Of a stretch of 27,991 nt of DNA, positions 1,709 through 9,063 are shown in pieces. The notes beneath the pieces are model-generated. The model did no database searches. It saw nothing but the letters and a program-made list of their open reading frames with translations, and was not told where the DNA came from. The DNA lies in the UHGV virus genome UHGV-0114978. One strand, given 5' to 3'. The position numbers were made by a program, and so were the translations under genes. Origin of the DNA: a virus. Within the stretch, counting starts at the first letter, position 1, and every line of letters begins with the position of its first letter.

Positions 1709-1927
1709 ATGTACTTGACACTTCAGGAGTGGAACGCACGCCAGCGACGCCCAAGAAGCCTTGAAACAGTTCGTCGATGGGTGCGCGAATGCAGGATATT
1801 CCCTCCTCCGGTTAAGGATGGAAGAGAGTATCTGTTCCACGAATCAGCGGTAAAGGTTGACTTAAATCGACCAGTAACAGGTAGCCTTTTGAAGAGGATC
1901 AGAAATGGGAAGAAGGCGAAGTCATGA
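1709..1927 (+). CDS. xis: excisionase Xis (lambda-type, 72 aa)
   Basis: Translation MYLTLQEWNARQRRPRSLETVRRWVRECRIFPPPVKDGREYLFHE... matches lambda Xis as I recall it over the full length; 23-nt overlap with int as in lambda. Confidence 0.93.
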   Translation: MYLTLQEWNARQRRPRSLETVRRWVRECRIFPPPVKDGREYLFHESAVKVDLNRPVTGSLLKRIRNGKKAKS

Positions 1928-2975
1928 GCGCCGGGATTTACCCCCTAACCTTTATATAAGAAACAATGGATATTACTGCTACAGGGACCCAAGGACGGGT
2001 AAAGAGTTTGGATTAGGCAGAGACAGGCGAATCGCAATCACTGAAGCCATACAGGCCAACATTGAGTTATTTTCAGGACACAAACACAAGCCTCTGACAG
2101 CGAGAATCAACAGTGATAATTCCGTTACGCTACATTCATGGCTTGATCGCTACGAAAAAATCCTGGCCAGCAGAGGAATCAAGCAGAAGACACTCATAAA
2201 TTACATGAGCAAAATTAAAGCAATAAGGAGGGGGCTGCCTGATGCTCCACTTGAAGACATCACCACAAAAGAAATTGCGGCAATGCTCAATGGATACATA
2301 GACGAGGGCAAGGCGGCGTCAGCCAAGTTAATCAGATCAACACTGAGCGATGCATTCCGAGAGGCAATAGCTGAAGGCCATATAACAACAAACCCTGTCG
2401 CTGCCACTCGCGCAGCAAAATCAGAGGTAAGGAGATCAAGACTTACGGCTGACGAATACCTGAAAATTTATCAAGCAGCAGAATCATCACCATGTTGGCT
2501 CAGACTTGCAATGGAACTGGCTGTTGTTACCGGGCAGCGAGTTGGGGATTTATGCGAAATGAAGTGGTCTGATATCGTAGATGGATATCTTTATGTCGAG
2601 CAAAGCAAAACAGGCGTAAAAATTGCCATCCCTACAACATTGCATGTTGATGCTCTCGGGATATCAATGAAGGAAACACTTGATAAATGCAAAGAGATTC
2701 TTGGCGGAGAAACCATAATTGCATCTACTCGTCGTGAACCGCTTTCATCCGGCACAGTATCAAGGTATTTTATGCGCGCACGAAAAGCATCAGGTCTTTC
2801 CTTCGAAGGGGATCCGCCTACCTTTCACGAGTTGCGCAGTTTGTCTGCAAGACTCTATGAGAAGCAGATAAGCGATAAGTTTGCTCAACATCTTCTCGGG
2901 CATAAGTCGGACACCATGGCATCACAGTATCGTGATGACAGAGGCAGGGAGTGGGACAAAATTGAAATCAAATAA
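1905..2975 (+). CDS. int: tyrosine integrase Int (lambda-type, 356 aa)
   Basis: MGRRRSHERRDLPPNLYIRNNGYYCYRDPRTGKEFGLGRD... is near-identical to lambda Int from memory (I see only a few substitutions). C-terminal catalytic region with HELRSLSARLYE and HLLGHKSDTMASQY (catalytic Tyr) is present. Confidence 0.97.
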   Translation: MGRRRSHERRDLPPNLYIRNNGYYCYRDPRTGKEFGLGRDRRIAITEAIQANIELFSGHKHKPLTARINSDNSVTLHSWLDRYEKILASRGIKQKTLINYMSKIKAIRRGLPDAPLEDITTKEIAAMLNGYIDEGKAASAKLIRSTLSDAFREAIAEGHITTNPVAATRAAKSEVRRSRLTADEYLKIYQAAESSPCWLRLAMELAVVTGQRVGDLCEMKWSDIVDGYLYVEQSKTGVKIAIPTTLHVDALGISMKETLDKCKEILGGETIIASTRREPLSSGTVSRYFMRARKASGLSFEGDPPTFHELRSLSARLYEKQISDKFAQHLLGHKSDTMASQYRDDRGREWDKIEIK

Positions 2976-3730: not shown

Positions 3731-5860
3731 CTATTCCTCAATACCTAACCTGCTTGAAACCTCCGGCATAACAGTAACCTGAAGGGTTTTTGATGAATCT
3801 GTGTTTTTAATTGCTATGCTGATATTGTCAGAAGTGCTGTTATTGTTTGACACTGTTATAGAGTTTGCATCCACCCCGAGTTTCGAATAAGCATCAGCAA
3901 AACTAAGACCAACACTTCCACCAACAACTCTATATGAACCATCAATTCTGAATGACGATATATTGTTATTGCTAACATCTCTAATTAGAACCCATATAGA
4001 AACGCCCCTGAAAACAAGGCTTGCCCCTGATGGTATTTGAAGTGATACAGTTCCTGTGGAACCGGGGGGGATACTGCCAGTATATTTAGTTCCGTGCAGA
4101 TATTTCCCCGGTAGATCTAAATACGAGGTGTCTGGCTGTAATAAATTATGTATATGTCTGCTATCTATGCTTCCAGACAGAACCATAGAATCATTTCCAT
4201 ATTCAATTATCCTTCCACCATCGTTACTTATTGTAAGTAATCCTTTGTTTCCTTTATTGTTTCTAACAGTTATATCAGAAGAATCCAGACGGACAATTGA
4301 TATATTTTTTTCTGTTCCATGACAATAATTTGATGAAATTTCACCTGTAACAAGTGACGTACATAAAATGTCTGAACTTCCATCACTGTCGCCAGTAATA
4401 GTGTTGCAGGAAATTAATGCACCATATACCAGACCTGTCGGAGATTCTCCAAATTGCTCTATAGTAATCCGTTTTGTGGTATTTGCTGATATGGTTATAT
4501 TATGAACATCGTCAGTTTGCGATGTTACTTTGATCCTTGATGAAACGGTATTTCCAGAAATAGTAACATTACTTGTATCATCCACCCATAAATATGACGA
4601 AAACGTATTACCTGATATGACTGAGTTACTCACCATTGAGTTCTCAAGCTCACATGAACCATAGCTATTGTTATGGTCATAATTTCCTATAATCCTTACA
4701 AATCCATTCTGGTTAATGAAGTTGTATGATGTTGCATTTTGTCCGCCATAAGTTGAGTTATGCGATGTTTCAGCATTTGTAACGCCTATATGTTGAAAAT
4801 GACCGGCATTTACAGAATCAGGAGCAACTGATGTACACCCTATTACTTTTGTGTTTTTGACAATTCTTGAATTAGGGTCATTCTCCAAATAATAGTTTTT
4901 TGCAACAAATGCCGTAGAGTAAAAGAAACCTTCAAATCTATTAAATAAAATCTGAATATCGTCATAATCTCTTTGGTCTTCATTTGCATAGCAATAAAAT
5001 GCTCTTGAAGACTCGGAGTAATCCTTGCATTTCTGAACGCCAGATAAAAGTGATCGGATTCTGCTAGATTTTATTCTAAATCCGTTGTGAATTAACGTTG
5101 CATCACCAACTAATGTTATTGGCTTAAACAATTCAACCTTATCAAAAACAAATTCACCACCATAAAATCCAAGTATAGCCCCTTCTGGTACTGCATTAAT
5201 AGCATTTTGAATTGCTACAGTATCATCTGTTATGCCGTCTCCTTTTGCACCAAAATCACGAACACTAATGGTGTCTCTCATCTTATCCTGGAACGTTCGG
5301 TACACAGCCCCAGAACCATACTGAATAAACCAACCAAAACCACCAACAACCCCGGCGATTGCAGCATCGACATAATTACGCATTGAGCGATTATTTACAG
5401 CATCCTGCTCAAGTGATGGATCTGCAAGGTTAGAAATTCTGTTTTGCTTTGCATCGTAATATTTTGCAAGCAGAGAGGGCTTCATCAATGCACGTCTGAA
5501 CCACCCAAAACATTGCTGGATCAGCATCGTCAGGTAGTCAAAGGCATCTTCATGCACTTCGGGGAAAAATTTTCCCTGATTGCGAAGGTCTGTCTCCTGC
5601 ACTACATCAAGCACACGATCTATCGTAATTCGCCATCCAGTAGCAAGCGGAGACAGAAGAACCACAGAACCGCCACTATAAGTGCCCGCCCCAGTTACCG
5701 TATAACCGGTATCCAGGACCAATTCTGTTACGTTCCCGTTCAGGTCAGACACCTGAACAACCAGGTCTGATTTTCTGAAAATTCGAAAAGTATACGGAAA
5801 CGATGTCGTAACGCCGTTACCGGTGTATTCGTTGTGGTCAACTTCGGTTGAGACCGTCAT
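3731..5860 (-). CDS. tailspike / receptor-binding protein with right-handed beta-helix (probable polysaccharide depolymerase)
   Basis: 709 aa. N-terminus (MTVSTEVDHNEYTGNGVTTSFPYTF...) resembles the virion-attachment domain of T7-type tail fibers. Motif DFGAKGDGITDDTVAIQNAI is typical of pectate-lyase-like beta-helix caps. GGAG RBS 8 nt upstream. Markedly AT-rich compared with neighbouring virion genes. Confidence 0.85.
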   Translation of the reverse strand: MTVSTEVDHNEYTGNGVTTSFPYTFRIFRKSDLVVQVSDLNGNVTELVLDTGYTVTGAGTYSGGSVVLLSPLATGWRITIDRVLDVVQETDLRNQGKFFPEVHEDAFDYLTMLIQQCFGWFRRALMKPSLLAKYYDAKQNRISNLADPSLEQDAVNNRSMRNYVDAAIAGVVGGFGWFIQYGSGAVYRTFQDKMRDTISVRDFGAKGDGITDDTVAIQNAINAVPEGAILGFYGGEFVFDKVELFKPITLVGDATLIHNGFRIKSSRIRSLLSGVQKCKDYSESSRAFYCYANEDQRDYDDIQILFNRFEGFFYSTAFVAKNYYLENDPNSRIVKNTKVIGCTSVAPDSVNAGHFQHIGVTNAETSHNSTYGGQNATSYNFINQNGFVRIIGNYDHNNSYGSCELENSMVSNSVISGNTFSSYLWVDDTSNVTISGNTVSSRIKVTSQTDDVHNITISANTTKRITIEQFGESPTGLVYGALISCNTITGDSDGSSDILCTSLVTGEISSNYCHGTEKNISIVRLDSSDITVRNNKGNKGLLTISNDGGRIIEYGNDSMVLSGSIDSRHIHNLLQPDTSYLDLPGKYLHGTKYTGSIPPGSTGTVSLQIPSGASLVFRGVSIWVLIRDVSNNNISSFRIDGSYRVVGGSVGLSFADAYSKLGVDANSITVSNNNSTSDNISIAIKNTDSSKTLQVTVMPEVSSRLGIEE

Positions 5861-6036: not shown

Positions 6037-6055
6037 ATTGCATGGAGAAGATAAG

Positions 6056-6313
6056 ATGCAGCAGTATCACTATCCACTGGAAGACGGATTTACCGAAAGG
6101 ATTCACACGCCGGGAGGCGTCAGGTCACTGGTGGAAGGATCGCACTTGATGAAATTACTCCGGGATCTCGATAAGGATGGATTTAATGTCGATGGCCCAC
6201 TTGCCGAACTGACTGCACTGATTAACTACGTCACCAGCTCACAGATGTCTATGCGGGATCTGCAAACACATCTCGACTATTGTGCCGAACAATTACGAAA
6301 ACAAACCAGATAA
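6056..6313 (+). CDS. SOS-box-associated small protein (85 aa) homologous to the C-terminal domain of the downstream antirepressor
   Basis: Track ORF 6038..6313 begins at TTG; ATG 6056 has SD GGAGAAG 5 nt upstream. Residues about 34-80 align with Ant residues about 175-225 (by eye about 45 percent identity, for example LM.LL..L..DG..V.G..AELT...Y......RD.QTH..Y). Confidence 0.6.
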   Translation: MQQYHYPLEDGFTERIHTPGGVRSLVEGSHLMKLLRDLDKDGFNVDGPLAELTALINYVTSSQMSMRDLQTHLDYCAEQLRKQTR

Positions 6314-6345
6314 GGTTTGTAATTACCAAGTGGAGTGCTTATATT

Positions 6346-6360: not shown

Positions 6361-6451
6361 TTTACACCGCACTCCTCTTGTGCCATAGTAATCGGGCACT
6401 GGCAAAATCCAGTGCCGGGATTGGCGTCCCGGATTACTAAAAGGCGCATTC

Positions 6452-6471
6452 ACCGCGCAAGCGGTTTTTTT
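6452..6471 (+). terminator. intrinsic terminator ACCGC-GCAA-GCGGT followed by TTTTTTT
   Basis: GC stem with GNRA-type loop and a 7-T run, read from the sequence; sits 140 nt downstream of the 85-aa ORF and 160 nt upstream of ant. Confidence 0.65.
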
Positions 6472-6628
6472 ATGCGTATAGCACGGCCACATTCGTATTA
6501 TGGTGGGCTGTGTGGGGGCACCGAAAGGTGCGCCGGGTCCTTTTAGCCGGTTACGCCAACCCTGCACAGTTCACCACCAACCGATTGGCGTCGGTAGTGG
6601 TGATTAACCAGACTAAAAGGTAACCACT

Positions 6629-7324
6629 ATGACAGCTACAAAAAGCACGTCCATTTTTTCTTTCGAATCTCAAGCCGATATACGGGTAATCGTCATTAAT
6701 GGTGAGCCATGGTTTATCGCTTCAGATGTTTGTCGGGCTATAGGCATAGCAAACCATCGAGATGCTGTTCGAAAACTTGATGATGATGAGAAGGGCGTCG
6801 CTTCAACCGACACCCCTGGCGGTGAGCAAGAATCGATCATTATCTCCGAGTCAGGCCTCTACACACTGATCCTCCGCTGCCGCGATGCGGTGACACCAGG
6901 CACTATCCCATACCGCTTTCGTAAATGGGTTACAGGTGAGGTTCTTCCTCAGATCCGCCGCACCGGAAGTTACATTAAAAACTCGCTCCCGCAGGAAGAA
7001 CGCATAAAGATGGTTGCCGACCAGGTAGCCAACGCCACGGCGTCAGCAGTAATGCAGGCGATGAAGATAGAGAACAAAACCTACAGTGCCCCGCTGAAGC
7101 CCGGCTACCGCAGCCTGATTCATTCGCCGTCGGGTGTTCTCGGCCTGACGGAGAACTCACTGCTGATGAATCTGCTGAACCAGTTACAGGACGACGGGCA
7201 CGACGTATCGGGCGCGGCGGCGGAACTGACCACCATGTTCTGCTACATCGTCGGTGTGAGCAAATGCCTGCGTGATATCCAGACGCACGCGGAATACATC
7301 AACGACAAGGCAGGGTTCTTCTGA
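6629..7324 (+). CDS. antirepressor with N-terminal BRO-N (Bro/KilA-N type) domain
   Basis: N-terminal region FSFESQADIRVIVINGEPWFIASDVCRAIGIANHRDAVRKLDDDEK...SGLYTLILRC...FRKWVTGEVLPQIRRTGSY matches the BRO-N/phage antirepressor signature; 231 aa. Confidence 0.85.
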   Translation: MTATKSTSIFSFESQADIRVIVINGEPWFIASDVCRAIGIANHRDAVRKLDDDEKGVASTDTPGGEQESIIISESGLYTLILRCRDAVTPGTIPYRFRKWVTGEVLPQIRRTGSYIKNSLPQEERIKMVADQVANATASAVMQAMKIENKTYSAPLKPGYRSLIHSPSGVLGLTENSLLMNLLNQLQDDGHDVSGAAAELTTMFCYIVGVSKCLRDIQTHAEYINDKAGFF

Positions 7325-7389
7325 CGAGCGGCGGCACAGGGATGTGCCTTTAAATAATTCTGTACAGATTGCAGGTGAATAGCGTACTA

Positions 7390-7404
7390 TTACCCCAAAG
7401 GTAA
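7390..7404. promoter_or_regulatory. palindrome TTACCCCAAAGGTAA (operator variant), copy 3
   Basis: Same TTACC-N5-GGTAA arms; lies about 27 bp upstream of ATG 7431. Confidence 0.4.
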
Positions 7405-7430
7405 ACCGAGAGTTTACATGAGGGGGAAAC

Positions 7431-7619
7431 ATGGAAATCAACATCATTACATTGCTGAAGGCCATTATTGGCGGAGCGGGCTTAGGCTTTGCCCTACCAG
7501 GCGGATTATCTTTCCTGCTTCCTGCTTTTACTGTTACAGCTGGGATAGCCTATGCATTTGCTGTAGCTGGTGCTGTTGCACTCCCTGCTATCTATGCCGC
7601 AAAGAAGTTAGCCAACTAA
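7431..7619 (+). CDS. small Gly/Ala-rich hydrophobic membrane protein (62 aa)
   Basis: Strong RBS (GAGGGGGAAAC before ATG); two predicted TM helices rich in G/A (IIGGAGLGFALPGG, AGIAYAFAVAGAVALPAIY); stop is directly followed by the next ATG. Confidence 0.5.
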   Translation: MEINIITLLKAIIGGAGLGFALPGGLSFLLPAFTVTAGIAYAFAVAGAVALPAIYAAKKLAN

Positions 7620-7620
7620 A

Positions 7621-7953
7621 ATGCCTGATTTATCTTGGCTTGCGCCCAGAGATGCACAGCAATTGACAAGGTTTTATTTCATACTGTGCATTGCTTATCT
7701 TGCTGTTCATCTGATATGGGATGCCGTTTGCAAAGATACGCCTCCTTTTTCTTTGGATAAGTTGCAATACAAGATGAATGAGGTTTATTCATCATCTACT
7801 TTTGCAACCAGCGCATTCTTCATTGTTATTCTGTTCGATATGAAGAATCCACTGAGAACTTCAGATGCTTTCATATTCCCATTAATTATTGCTGCTCTAA
7901 CTGGCTTTATGATCTCATTATCAGCAATAGTGCCAAAGAAAGTAAATAACTGA
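7621..7953 (+). CDS. hypothetical integral membrane protein (110 aa, about 3 TM segments)
   Basis: Translationally coupled to the 62-aa ORF (TAA-A-ATG); hydrophobic segments FYFILCIAYLAVHLIW, FATSAFFIVILF, FIFPLIIAALTGFMISLSAIV; followed by a terminator. Confidence 0.55.
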   Translation: MPDLSWLAPRDAQQLTRFYFILCIAYLAVHLIWDAVCKDTPPFSLDKLQYKMNEVYSSSTFATSAFFIVILFDMKNPLRTSDAFIFPLIIAALTGFMISLSAIVPKKVNN

Positions 7954-7956
7954 ATA

Positions 7957-7979
7957 AGCCCGCTCTGCGGGCTTTTTTG
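7957..7979 (+). terminator. intrinsic terminator AGCCCGC-TCTG-CGGGCT followed by TTTTTT
   Basis: Perfect stem plus T-run immediately after the 110-aa ORF stop. Confidence 0.7.
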
Positions 7980-8050
7980 TGGACGAAACAAAAGTCAGTG
8001 CTACACTCATTAACGCCACATTGAGGTGGCTTATAGATGGAAATTTAACA

Positions 8051-8212
8051 ATGAAAAAAGCATTTGCTGCACTGTTCGTTTTGTTGTCTCTGGTAGCTTC
8101 AACTCAGGCCTTTGCCGGTCGTTGTCAGCACGACAGCGATACTGCTGCTGACGGCTCCCGCTGCGGTGGGCGTTCTGCGGATTCCCGTCCGGGCGGCGGT
8201 GGCATTCGTTAA
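8051..8212 (+). CDS. candidate small secreted peptide (53-aa precursor with signal peptide MKKAFAALFVLLSLVASTQAFA)
   Basis: Internal Met of track ORF 7979..8212 starts a classic Sec signal peptide (MKK n-region, hydrophobic core, AFA cleavage motif); predicted mature peptide about 31 aa, Gly/Arg-rich with 2 Cys. Confidence 0.4.
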   Translation: MKKAFAALFVLLSLVASTQAFAGRCQHDSDTAADGSRCGGRSADSRPGGGGIR

Positions 8213-8240
8213 AAACAAGGCCGCGAAAGCGGCCTGTTTG
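8211..8240. terminator. bidirectional terminator-like hairpin GGCCGC-GAAA-GCGGCC flanked by A-run and T-run
   Basis: Sits between convergent genes (plus-strand peptide ORF, minus-strand 273-aa ORF); reads as stem plus TTGTTTTT on the minus strand. Confidence 0.6.
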
Positions 8241-8241
8241 A

Positions 8242-9063
8242 TCACTGTGCAGTTTTCGCTGATCGATTTTCAGCTCTAAATTCAAGAACCGTTTCAATAT
8301 TTCTTTCCTTCAGCATATCAATAACATTTTTATTCATTTGACTATCACTGGTTAATAACTGGTAAACGTTGCTTCTCTCTTTATCAGAGTTTTCTTTAAC
8401 AGCTGCTTTGCATGCCAAATGCTTATTGAAATTTTCTACATCGCTAGTACAGGAATTTACGGCTGCTGATGAAATATCAGACGCTGAAGAAACACCGTCA
8501 TCCAAACGTTTTATAGCATTTTCTATACATGAGTTAAGGGAATAAACGACAACTGAGCGATACCCTTCAGACGCACACCATTCTAAATTTCTTGAAGGAT
8601 CGAGTGGTTTTACTTCGCTGGATTGAATTAACTTGTCAAAAACTGACTTATATTCAATCTGTTTTTTATCTATAGCCCATACTTCAGTAGCTGATTTATA
8701 ATTCCCCGTATGCCTATTAACATCAAATCCATGTTTTATAAGCAAATCTGCCCATGAAAGATTTATTGATTCATTGTTATGAGGCCATTTTCCTGTCAGA
8801 ACCGCCCCCATAGACCCCATATATCCGCCATATGATGGTATAGCACCATGGCTCAGTAACTTCTCTGCAACCACAGGGCAATTAATTACATAAGAGGCGT
8901 AAAGCCCATTCCATAAAGCCCCTCTATAGTAATCGCCACGATTAGGTTCTTTTAAGTCGATAGCCTTTGATAATTGTTCGCACGTTTTGCATGCATCAAA
9001 GTTATCCTTATTGCATTGCAATGAACTGGCAGCTGTAGGATTTACAGAGACTATTGAAAGCAC
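8242..9063 (-). CDS. Cys-rich protein with degenerate ankyrin-like motifs; probable secreted form starts at ATG 9083 via a -1 shift in an A7 tract
   Basis: Track ORF starts at GTG 9063. One nt after the upstream stop, ATG 9083 + A7 would encode MKKNFGIVLSIVSVNPTAASSLQC (a signal peptide) if read with a -1 slip or an A8 tract. LLSHGAIPS and LLIKHGFDVNRH look like ankyrin helix-turn motifs. Confidence 0.6.
   Translation of the reverse strand: MLSIVSVNPTAASSLQCNKDNFDACKTCEQLSKAIDLKEPNRGDYYRGALWNGLYASYVINCPVVAEKLLSHGAIPSYGGYMGSMGAVLTGKWPHNNESINLSWADLLIKHGFDVNRHTGNYKSATEVWAIDKKQIEYKSVFDKLIQSSEVKPLDPSRNLEWCASEGYRSVVVYSLNSCIENAIKRLDDGVSSASDISSAAVNSCTSDVENFNKHLACKAAVKENSDKERSNVYQLLTSDSQMNKNVIDMLKERNIETVLEFRAENRSAKTAQ

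Follow-up and report, generated by a model that had tools for sequence, protein, structure and literature searches.

What function is served by two small, adjoining membrane-protein genes that a temperate phage carries between its immI region and its ejection-protein genes? The question is raised by the virus genome UHGV-0114978, analysed here as one stretch of 27,991 nucleotides (the window), which is a Uetakevirus (epsilon15/phiV10)-like temperate phage whose region of interest matches Escherichia phages TL-2011b and phiv142-3 as well as phiV10 relatives. The two genes form a moron-type exchangeable cargo of prophages, housed in an accessory-gene hotspot, and move together among prophage slots, chromosomes and a small plasmid. 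With regard to function, our best guess, made with low confidence, is that the pair is a candidate membrane toxin/immunity-like or exclusion module. The open reading frames (ORFs) described in an earlier note on this DNA, a Gly/Ala-rich protein of 62 amino acids followed by one of 110 amino acids with three predicted transmembrane (TM) segments, are confirmed in position, strand and composition:

7431-7619, plus strand: gene 1, ATG start, 62 amino acids, TAA stop (WP_000405096.1; PHROG 13406)
7621-7953, plus strand: gene 2, ATG start, 110 amino acids, TGA stop (WP_001113079.1; PHROG 36716)

The genes are joined by a TAA-A-ATG junction with a gap of a single nucleotide, and gene 2 has no good Shine-Dalgarno (SD) site of its own. 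As a strong SD precedes gene 1 only, termination-reinitiation is the natural reading of the junction, in agreement with the translational coupling that had been proposed. A Klebsiella copy about 77% identical in DNA to the pair of the window provides a measure of constraint, with a ratio of nonsynonymous to synonymous substitution rates (dN/dS) of 0.046 for gene 1 (dS 1.16) and a dN of 0.079 for gene 2, where dS is saturated. Judged by these codon comparisons, both ORFs are genuine genes under strong purifying selection.

Both products are predicted membrane proteins, the 62-residue protein with two and the 110-residue protein with three TM segments. The former is hydrophobic from end to end, with 37% Gly plus Ala, a grand average of hydropathy (GRAVY) of 1.33 and the C-terminus KKLAN. 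AlphaFold2, run on the family alignment, models it as a helical hairpin (helix 5-29, loop LPAFTVT, helix 37-61) with a mean predicted local distance difference test score (pLDDT) of 83; the hairpin is glycine-zipper-like and has small-xxx-small faces. Residues K10, A21, G24, S27, P31, T36 and A40 are invariant, and K-x-I-I-G-G-A-G is the signature motif of the family. The 110-residue protein has three hydrophobic peaks, at about residues 19-33, 58-72 and 85-99, and is modelled in the same way as three long helices (pLDDT 72). Its conserved elements are H-x-x-W-D...T-P-x-F, K51, D-x-x-N-P-L-R-x-S-D-A-F and P105.

Searches for known relatives returned little for either protein. No model in Pfam, NCBIfam or PADLOC (PADLOC-DB v2.0) matches either of them at E <= 1, and PADLOC-DB v2.0 at the same threshold has nothing for the neighbours of the pair. 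The only family matches are PHROG 13406 and PHROG 36716, both listed as 'unknown function', and RefSeq calls both proteins hypothetical. Sequence-profile searches of the PDB with both proteins and Foldseek searches against the PDB and BFVD gave nothing significant, and 63 distant homologues of gene 2 run against Pfam produced stray single matches only. The resemblance of the 62-residue protein to small pore-forming or stress-associated membrane peptides, to which the earlier note had pointed, holds for composition but does not extend to any family model, as glycine-zipper, Hok/TisB-type and Pmp3-type models do not match at E <= 1. A literature search with sequence fragments and the RefSeq accessions did not find the pair. 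No homology connects this uncharacterised family with described superinfection-exclusion (Sie), abortive-infection (Abi), toxin-antitoxin (TA), holin or bacteriocin families; membrane-protein cargo of prophages is, as a kind, familiar.

The genomic setting of the pair is more informative. Homology to TL-2011b and phiv142-3 ends at about 7405-7409 and restarts at 7952, and these breakpoints delimit the cassette as a leader hairpin, a ribosome-binding site (RBS) and the two genes. The GC content is 37-39% across gene 2, compared with 53-59% in the antirepressor gene that forms the left border of the slot. The elements in and around the slot are as follows:

6629-7324, plus strand: Bro-N antirepressor-like gene, 231 amino acids (Pfam Bro-N 2.3e-21; PHROG 130 'anti-repressor Ant')
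7333-7348, plus strand: hairpin GGCACA-GGGA-TGTGCC followed by TTTAAAT, an inverted repeat directly after the Bro-N stop; backbone element
7361-7390, plus strand: candidate weak promoter, TGTACA (7361-7366), 18-nucleotide spacer, TACTAT (7385-7390); 8/12, from manual reading and slot-leader alignment
7390-7404, no strand: palindrome 1, TTACC-CCAAA-GGTAA, operator-like, overlapping the putative -10/+1 region; backbone
7401-7417, plus strand: hairpin 2, GTAAAC-CGAGA-GTTTAC, overlapping palindrome 1
7420-7426, plus strand: SD sequence GAGGGGG, ending 4 nucleotides 5' of the gene 1 ATG
7956-7978, plus strand: strong intrinsic terminator, 8-bp GC-rich stem followed by TTTTTT; backbone, closing the slot
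8051-8212, plus strand: conserved 53-amino-acid protein with a signal-peptide-like N-terminus (PHROG 14503 'membrane associated protein'; RefSeq WP_000708858.1)

A query composed of the slot flanks alone (7325-7409 and 7952-8240) was run against 5426 complete E. coli genomes. Both flanks occur in at least 262 of these, and at least five alternative cargos are found between them:

cargo 1: the present pair, in 19 E. coli genomes
cargo 2: a YafO-family toxin gene with a 59-amino-acid ORF 5' of it (including TL-2011b)
cargo 3: a soluble pair of 55 and 147 amino acids
cargo 4: a protein of 210 amino acids
cargo 5: a single-TM DUF4760 protein

This exchange bears out the idea that the pair is accessory, moron-type cargo of a hotspot, and the slot is the map equivalent of sieA in phage P22. 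Every cargo lies 3' of the invariant TTACC-N5-GGTAA palindrome, and the terminator at 7956-7978 is retained behind other cargos. Another allele of the pair in E. coli, with 58% identity in the gene 1 protein, is found in this slot too, behind a leader that is practically unchanged. One Klebsiella prophage has the cassette, terminator included, 5' of the Bro-N gene rather than 3' of it.

The expression signals are accordingly those of the slot more than those of the pair. The earlier note had placed the genes behind an operator and promoter of their own. A palindrome does precede them, but it is not private, as both it and the terminator belong to the backbone shared with other cargos. Palindrome 1 precedes five different cargos. 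In the prophages compared, from IMG/VR, Citrobacter, Klebsiella and E. coli, its arms are invariant and its 5-nucleotide spacer varies, a sequence pattern that fits a protein-binding site; the palindrome is not present at the chromosomal copies in Yersinia and Serratia. The proposed promoter fared less well. A consensus scan of the plus strand from 7325 to 7430 at a threshold of 9/12 found none, and the 8/12 candidate at 7361-7390 is the sole candidate. Relatives carry TTGCAG-17-TACTAT, with the -10 element abutting the palindrome in siblings. Compared with the related loci L026 and L028 and with TL-2011b, the window has a 7-bp deletion within 7367-7384 that reduces the TTGCAG-TACTAT spacer from 17 to 10 nucleotides, and expression of the slot in the lineage of the window may therefore differ. 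The same deletion is present in one DUF4760-bearing sibling. The hairpin at 7333-7348 is kept in siblings with other cargo and in Klebsiella and was not called by the terminator scan; it could act as a weak terminator or a processing site, and its poor T-tract makes read-through from the immI operon equally possible.

A putative RBS-occluding structure of the leader is plausible by minimum free energy but finds no statistical support. In the predicted RNA fold, hairpin 2 combines with pairing of CCCC (7393-7396) and GGGG (7422-7425) into a two-tier stem that would occlude the predicted SD, an element for which a GGAGG-type counterpart stands at the same position in all homologous loci. The folding energy of -13.1 kcal/mol (z about -1.3) is not significant, comparable minimum-free-energy folds of the leader occur in many relatives, and the covariation test is likewise not significant, with 164 of 500 shuffles matching the observed score. 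No Rfam family reached threshold within 7380-7990, RNAs of unknown type being outside the scope of that search, and two antisense promoter-like sites near 7909-7946 are within the number expected by chance.

The distribution of the pair extends well beyond this phage. Relatives of gene 1 fall into 56 protein clusters, all those named being from Enterobacterales, and a profile search with gene 2 recovers 83 representatives at 50% identity that include marine Oceanospirillaceae and metagenome sequences (25-35% identity). Gene 1 is immediately 5' of gene 2 at every locus examined, that is in E. coli, five Klebsiella pneumoniae, Citrobacter, Pectobacterium and one metagenomic prophage as well as in Serratia, IMG/VR contigs, a plasmid and Yersinia, and the junction is mostly stop-N-ATG/TTG/GTG. 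In the IMG/VR set the small gene comes first on 18 contigs, whose lengths range over 8.6-65 kb and are mostly near 40 kb; a nineteenth locus begins at the contig end, which leaves its upstream side unreadable. The Klebsiella cluster of gene 1 is found on at least 1000 contigs. In the five K. pneumoniae loci (L007-L011, about 8191-8526), a 111-amino-acid gene 2 is intact yet uncalled in the gene tables of the records, and annotation-based surveys are thus likely to under-count the pair.

Conservation in related phages, on which the earlier note had staked its proposal, is divided. The pair is missing from the nearest phages with a sequenced genome, and a tblastn search of 50,697 phage records with both proteins gave no match. 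In Uetakevirus-like prophages, by contrast, both in Klebsiella and elsewhere, the pair is common. A purely phage-centred view did not predict the copies on a plasmid and in Yersinia chromosomes. The plasmid, the sole plasmid match, is the 4.9-kb non-mobilizable Aeromonas veronii plasmid NZ_CP102109.1, with qnrS2 and one hypothetical gene as its annotated content. The pair is unannotated there (1859-2409, minus strand), has a gene 2 that is 62% identical to that of the window, and is almost the only cargo besides qnrS2. A single syntenic chromosomal site, consisting of a corA/zntB-like gene, the pair and an SBP_bac_5 gene, is shared by eight Yersinia species, Sodalis sp. RH21 and one further genome, which points to long vertical residence at this site. 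The small upstream gene was read directly in Y. rohdei and one related genome, and the starts of gene 1 in the other Yersinia and in Sodalis were placed by tblastn.

In Serratia fonticola the pair is a two-gene islet beside guaA. Two S. fonticola genomes (L003 and L005, about 8205-8260) have a frameshift in gene 2 near codon 22; another N-terminus is called there from an ATG 19 nucleotides past gene 1, and the tight coupling is thereby lost. An integrase Arm-binding-domain gene that separates the pair from guaA suggests a decayed prophage or island. The marine homologues of gene 2 likewise have a small two-helix ORF with K-x-I-I-G-G-A-G 5' of them, and this small partner matches the gene 1 profile with an hhalign E-value of 2e-4. 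On one marine contig a HigB toxin gene is inserted beside the pair.

The single most likely reading of these observations, to be taken as tentative, is a toxin/immunity-like arrangement. The 62- and 110-residue proteins would form a hetero-oligomeric complex in the inner membrane, in which the Gly/Ala-rich hairpin may act as a membrane-active effector that forms pores or lesions and the three-TM partner would restrain or neutralise it. Synthesis of the partner would be tied to gene 1 via termination-reinitiation, often from weak TTG or GTG starts, and disturbance of the balance between the two could provide the carrier element with addiction, and thereby stable maintenance, or with abortive infection or exclusion of incoming phages. 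This reading is favoured by the company kept in the slot and elsewhere, namely the YafO-family toxin, the other pairs of a small and a large gene and the marine HigB neighbour. It is further suggested by the carriage of the pair on a minimal plasmid, by its persistence in Serratia as an islet of two genes, by the allelic divergence within one slot and by the coupling from weak TTG/GTG starts in many members. The constraint on both genes seen in the codon comparisons, their strict co-occurrence and order, and the predicted structures also point in this direction. On a broader scale, the pair is possibly, and by no means assuredly, the founding member of a widespread two-component membrane system, in which a glycine-zipper hairpin effector is held by a dedicated three-TM partner and which would serve phage exclusion, abortive infection or replicon addiction in Enterobacterales, Aeromonas and marine Gammaproteobacteria.

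Several points weigh against a toxin with its immunity partner. The empty Pfam, NCBIfam, PADLOC, PDB sequence and Foldseek searches provide no sign by homology of toxicity, pore formation or immunity. A toxin-first order with the partner coupled from weak starts is not the usual layout of type II TA systems, and the RBS-occluding leader has no significant support from covariation or energy. The syntenic chromosomal copy in Yersinia and Sodalis would not ordinarily be expected of an addiction or defence cassette and is in keeping with a physiological role; its vertical inheritance would be compatible with a function in the envelope, or with a purely immune or excluding role free of self-toxicity.

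The first of these possibilities, doubtful as it is, is the strongest competitor. Here the pair would have a cellular envelope function, such as membrane homeostasis, service to a host membrane protein as its accessory subunit or regulator, or immunity to a membrane-damaging agent from outside, and would have been captured as a fitness moron in which no toxin is involved. The strong purifying selection and the one site kept in eight Yersinia species, Sodalis and one further genome are consistent with this, as is a type VI secretion system (T6SS) immunity gene (Rap1a) in the neighbouring variable slot of a Citrobacter prophage. The size and three-TM topology of the 110-residue protein also resemble those of membrane immunity proteins in general, to which no homology was found. 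The absence of a match to any known family speaks against this explanation, and the repeated capture by unrelated mobile elements in TA-like cargo company points to conflict functions instead.

Superinfection exclusion at the inner membrane is an unlikely alternative. It would require an inner-membrane complex that, in the manner of SieA and without harm to its own host, blocks assembly of the ejection conduit or DNA entry of short-tailed phages. Map position is its principal attraction: the P22 map has ejection genes (gene 16), sieA, mnt/arc/ant and tailspike (gene 9), the order in the window is tailspike, immI, pair and ejection genes, and the pair is thus encoded where P22 carries sieA. P22 SieA is likewise a three-TM inner-membrane protein, and SieA types diverge to below 30% identity (PMC10883804). 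The allelic divergence of the pair within one slot and its occurrence mostly in Uetakevirus-like prophages would also suit exclusion. Similarity to SieA is nevertheless absent at the level of sequence and profile, as hhalign of a 63-sequence gene 2 profile with P22 SieA gives a probability of 0.2% (E = 0.37) and the cytoplasmic motif FxRYPxEAxxFNK of SieA types A-C is not in the 110-residue protein. The fixation of the pair at a Yersinia chromosomal site and its presence on a tiny plasmid weigh against exclusion, which also leaves the need for two coupled proteins unexplained.

Very improbable is a class II microcin-like bacteriocin, in which MEINIITLLKAIIGG would be a 15-residue double-glycine leader, followed by a 47-residue hydrophobic, Gly/Ala-rich peptide, with the three-TM protein conferring immunity and an exporter, consisting of a peptidase-containing ATP-binding cassette transporter (PCAT) and a membrane fusion protein (MFP), encoded elsewhere. 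The attraction lies in the GG at residues 14-15, the hydrophobic residues at -4 and -7, the Gly/Ala-rich core, the bacteriocin-first order with an adjoining small membrane protein and the presence on a small plasmid. Against this, G14 is replaced by Ala in about a quarter of its members, the Citrobacter, L014, L015 and Aeromonas members having AG, and the marine homologue has no hydrophobic residue at -7. K10, which would fall within such a leader, is invariant, conservation is equally strong in the leader region and in the core, and in the AlphaFold model helix 5-29 is continuous through the GG. No C39-ABC or MFP exporter was found within 6-8 kb in the fetched loci whose gene tables were read, nor on the 4.9-kb plasmid, and no bacteriocin or microcin hidden Markov model (HMM) in Pfam or NCBIfam matches at E <= 1. 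A GRAVY of 1.33 would also be extreme for a secreted peptide. A double-glycine leader was dropped as the leading explanation in view of the family conservation, the absence of exporters near the copies and the predicted helix.

An auxiliary lysis-timing pair, that is a holin- or pinholin-like protein with its antiholin and a first helix resembling a signal-anchor-release (SAR) domain, is also highly unlikely, as the two TM helices, the Gly/Ala-rich first helix and a few low-ranked, non-significant Foldseek neighbours annotated as holins are set against a complete lysis cassette elsewhere in related prophages (two holin-family genes, an endolysin and a DUF2514 protein), no adjoining endolysin, a C-terminal KKLAN in place of a long charged tail, no match to holin models of Pfam or PHROG, and chromosomal and plasmid copies outside any lysis context.

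The further features of the window that surround the pair are the following:

1905-2975, plus strand: lambda-type tyrosine integrase gene
3731-5860, minus strand: pectate-lyase-like tailspike
6038-6313: ORF of 91 amino acids, matching PHROG 450 and PHROG 15539
6317-6345 and 6361-6389: two promoter-like sites
6383-6435, plus strand: c4-a1b1 targets (Rfam 45.1 bits, slightly under threshold)
6396-6471, plus strand: isrK (Rfam 77.9 bits, above gathering score)
6496-6581, plus strand: C4 antisense RNA (Rfam 77.7 bits, above gathering score)
8242-9063, minus strand: ORF of 273 amino acids, PHROG 6118, function not known, low GC (34-44%)
9085 onwards: T7-gp14-like and giant internal or ejection proteins

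The proposal that the pair lies in an immI-equivalent island is upheld by the C4 RNA, isrK and the Bro-N antirepressor gene, identified via Rfam, Pfam and PHROG, the Bro-N gene being directly 3' of the immI RNAs. This immI region is C4-RNA-controlled and thus of the P1/P7 type, not of the P22 type with Arc and Mnt. The 91-residue ORF is situated just 5' of the C4 region, and since residues 148-231 of the Bro-N protein are matched by PHROG 450 and PHROG 15539 as well, this ORF is a stand-alone copy of the C-terminal domain of the antirepressor; it could be a decoy, a regulator or a remnant of a duplication. The 53-residue ORF is kept behind every cargo variant and borders the slot on the right; a terminator of bidirectional appearance comes after it at 8218-8235. 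Its product has two Cys residues and a Gly-rich tail and is without a canonical lipobox. The 273-residue ORF fills a second variable slot, which elsewhere contains Ant and an Arc-like repressor (TL-2011b), a 118-residue ORF (phiv142-3) or a Rap1a-domain protein of T6SS immunity (Citrobacter prophage L013). The integrase gene is close to the tailspike gene in the window; in the otherwise near-identical SCZE5 prophage this place is taken by the lysis cassette and the host junction on the yfgI side, so that the arrangement or permutation of the window differs from the integrated form.

If the pair is indeed an exclusion, abortive-infection or addiction module acting at the membrane, it would be a compact, non-homologous addition of 540 bp to the known repertoire. 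It would then explain a very common prophage cassette of K. pneumoniae, with relevance to host range in phage therapy, and might be a reason why a small qnrS2 plasmid is stably carried. Whatever the function of the pair, palindrome and terminator bound a well-defined hotspot of Uetakevirus-like prophages, 3' of the C4-RNA-controlled antirepressor gene, that could be mined for further accessory genes.

The pair shares features with several known systems without coinciding with any of them. With P22 SieA it has in common expression from a prophage, small size, about three predicted TM helices and a map position between an immI-type antirepressor region and the ejection genes. It differs in that SieA is a single protein of 162-164 amino acids, in place of a coupled pair, and in that the pair also lives outside phages. 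Class II microcins and their immunity proteins, such as MccV and Cvi, offer a small Gly/Ala-rich peptide with a GG near residue 15 and an adjoining small polytopic membrane protein. In the present family the GG is not conserved, an exporter is not found nearby, an HMM match is missing and the predicted TM hairpin runs throughout the peptide.

The small membrane toxins Hok, TisB and GhoT and the glycine-zipper pore formers are likewise short, very hydrophobic helical proteins, and the small-xxx-small motifs and a 5' leader that possibly occludes the RBS extend the likeness. The partner of the pair differs from that of Hok, TisB and GhoT in being a membrane protein and not an antisense RNA or an RNase, and the Rfam search of the cassette yielded no antitoxin RNA. 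The RexAB system of lambda and gp30/31 of mycobacteriophage Sbash are reportedly prophage modules of two genes, with a membrane protein as the putative effector and a cytoplasmic protein as the sensor. The two-gene prophage module with a membrane component is common to these and to the pair, whereas both proteins of the pair are small and predicted to be embedded in the membrane, and homology is absent (PADLOC empty).

Neither protein of the pair matches a type II TA family in Pfam, NCBIfam or PADLOC. The YafO-family cargo of TL-2011b differs in being soluble, with no hydrophobic segment detected, in contrast to two predicted integral membrane proteins. The two cassettes are nonetheless alike in their slot, palindrome and terminator, in their composition of two genes with the small one first, and in their mobility between replicons.

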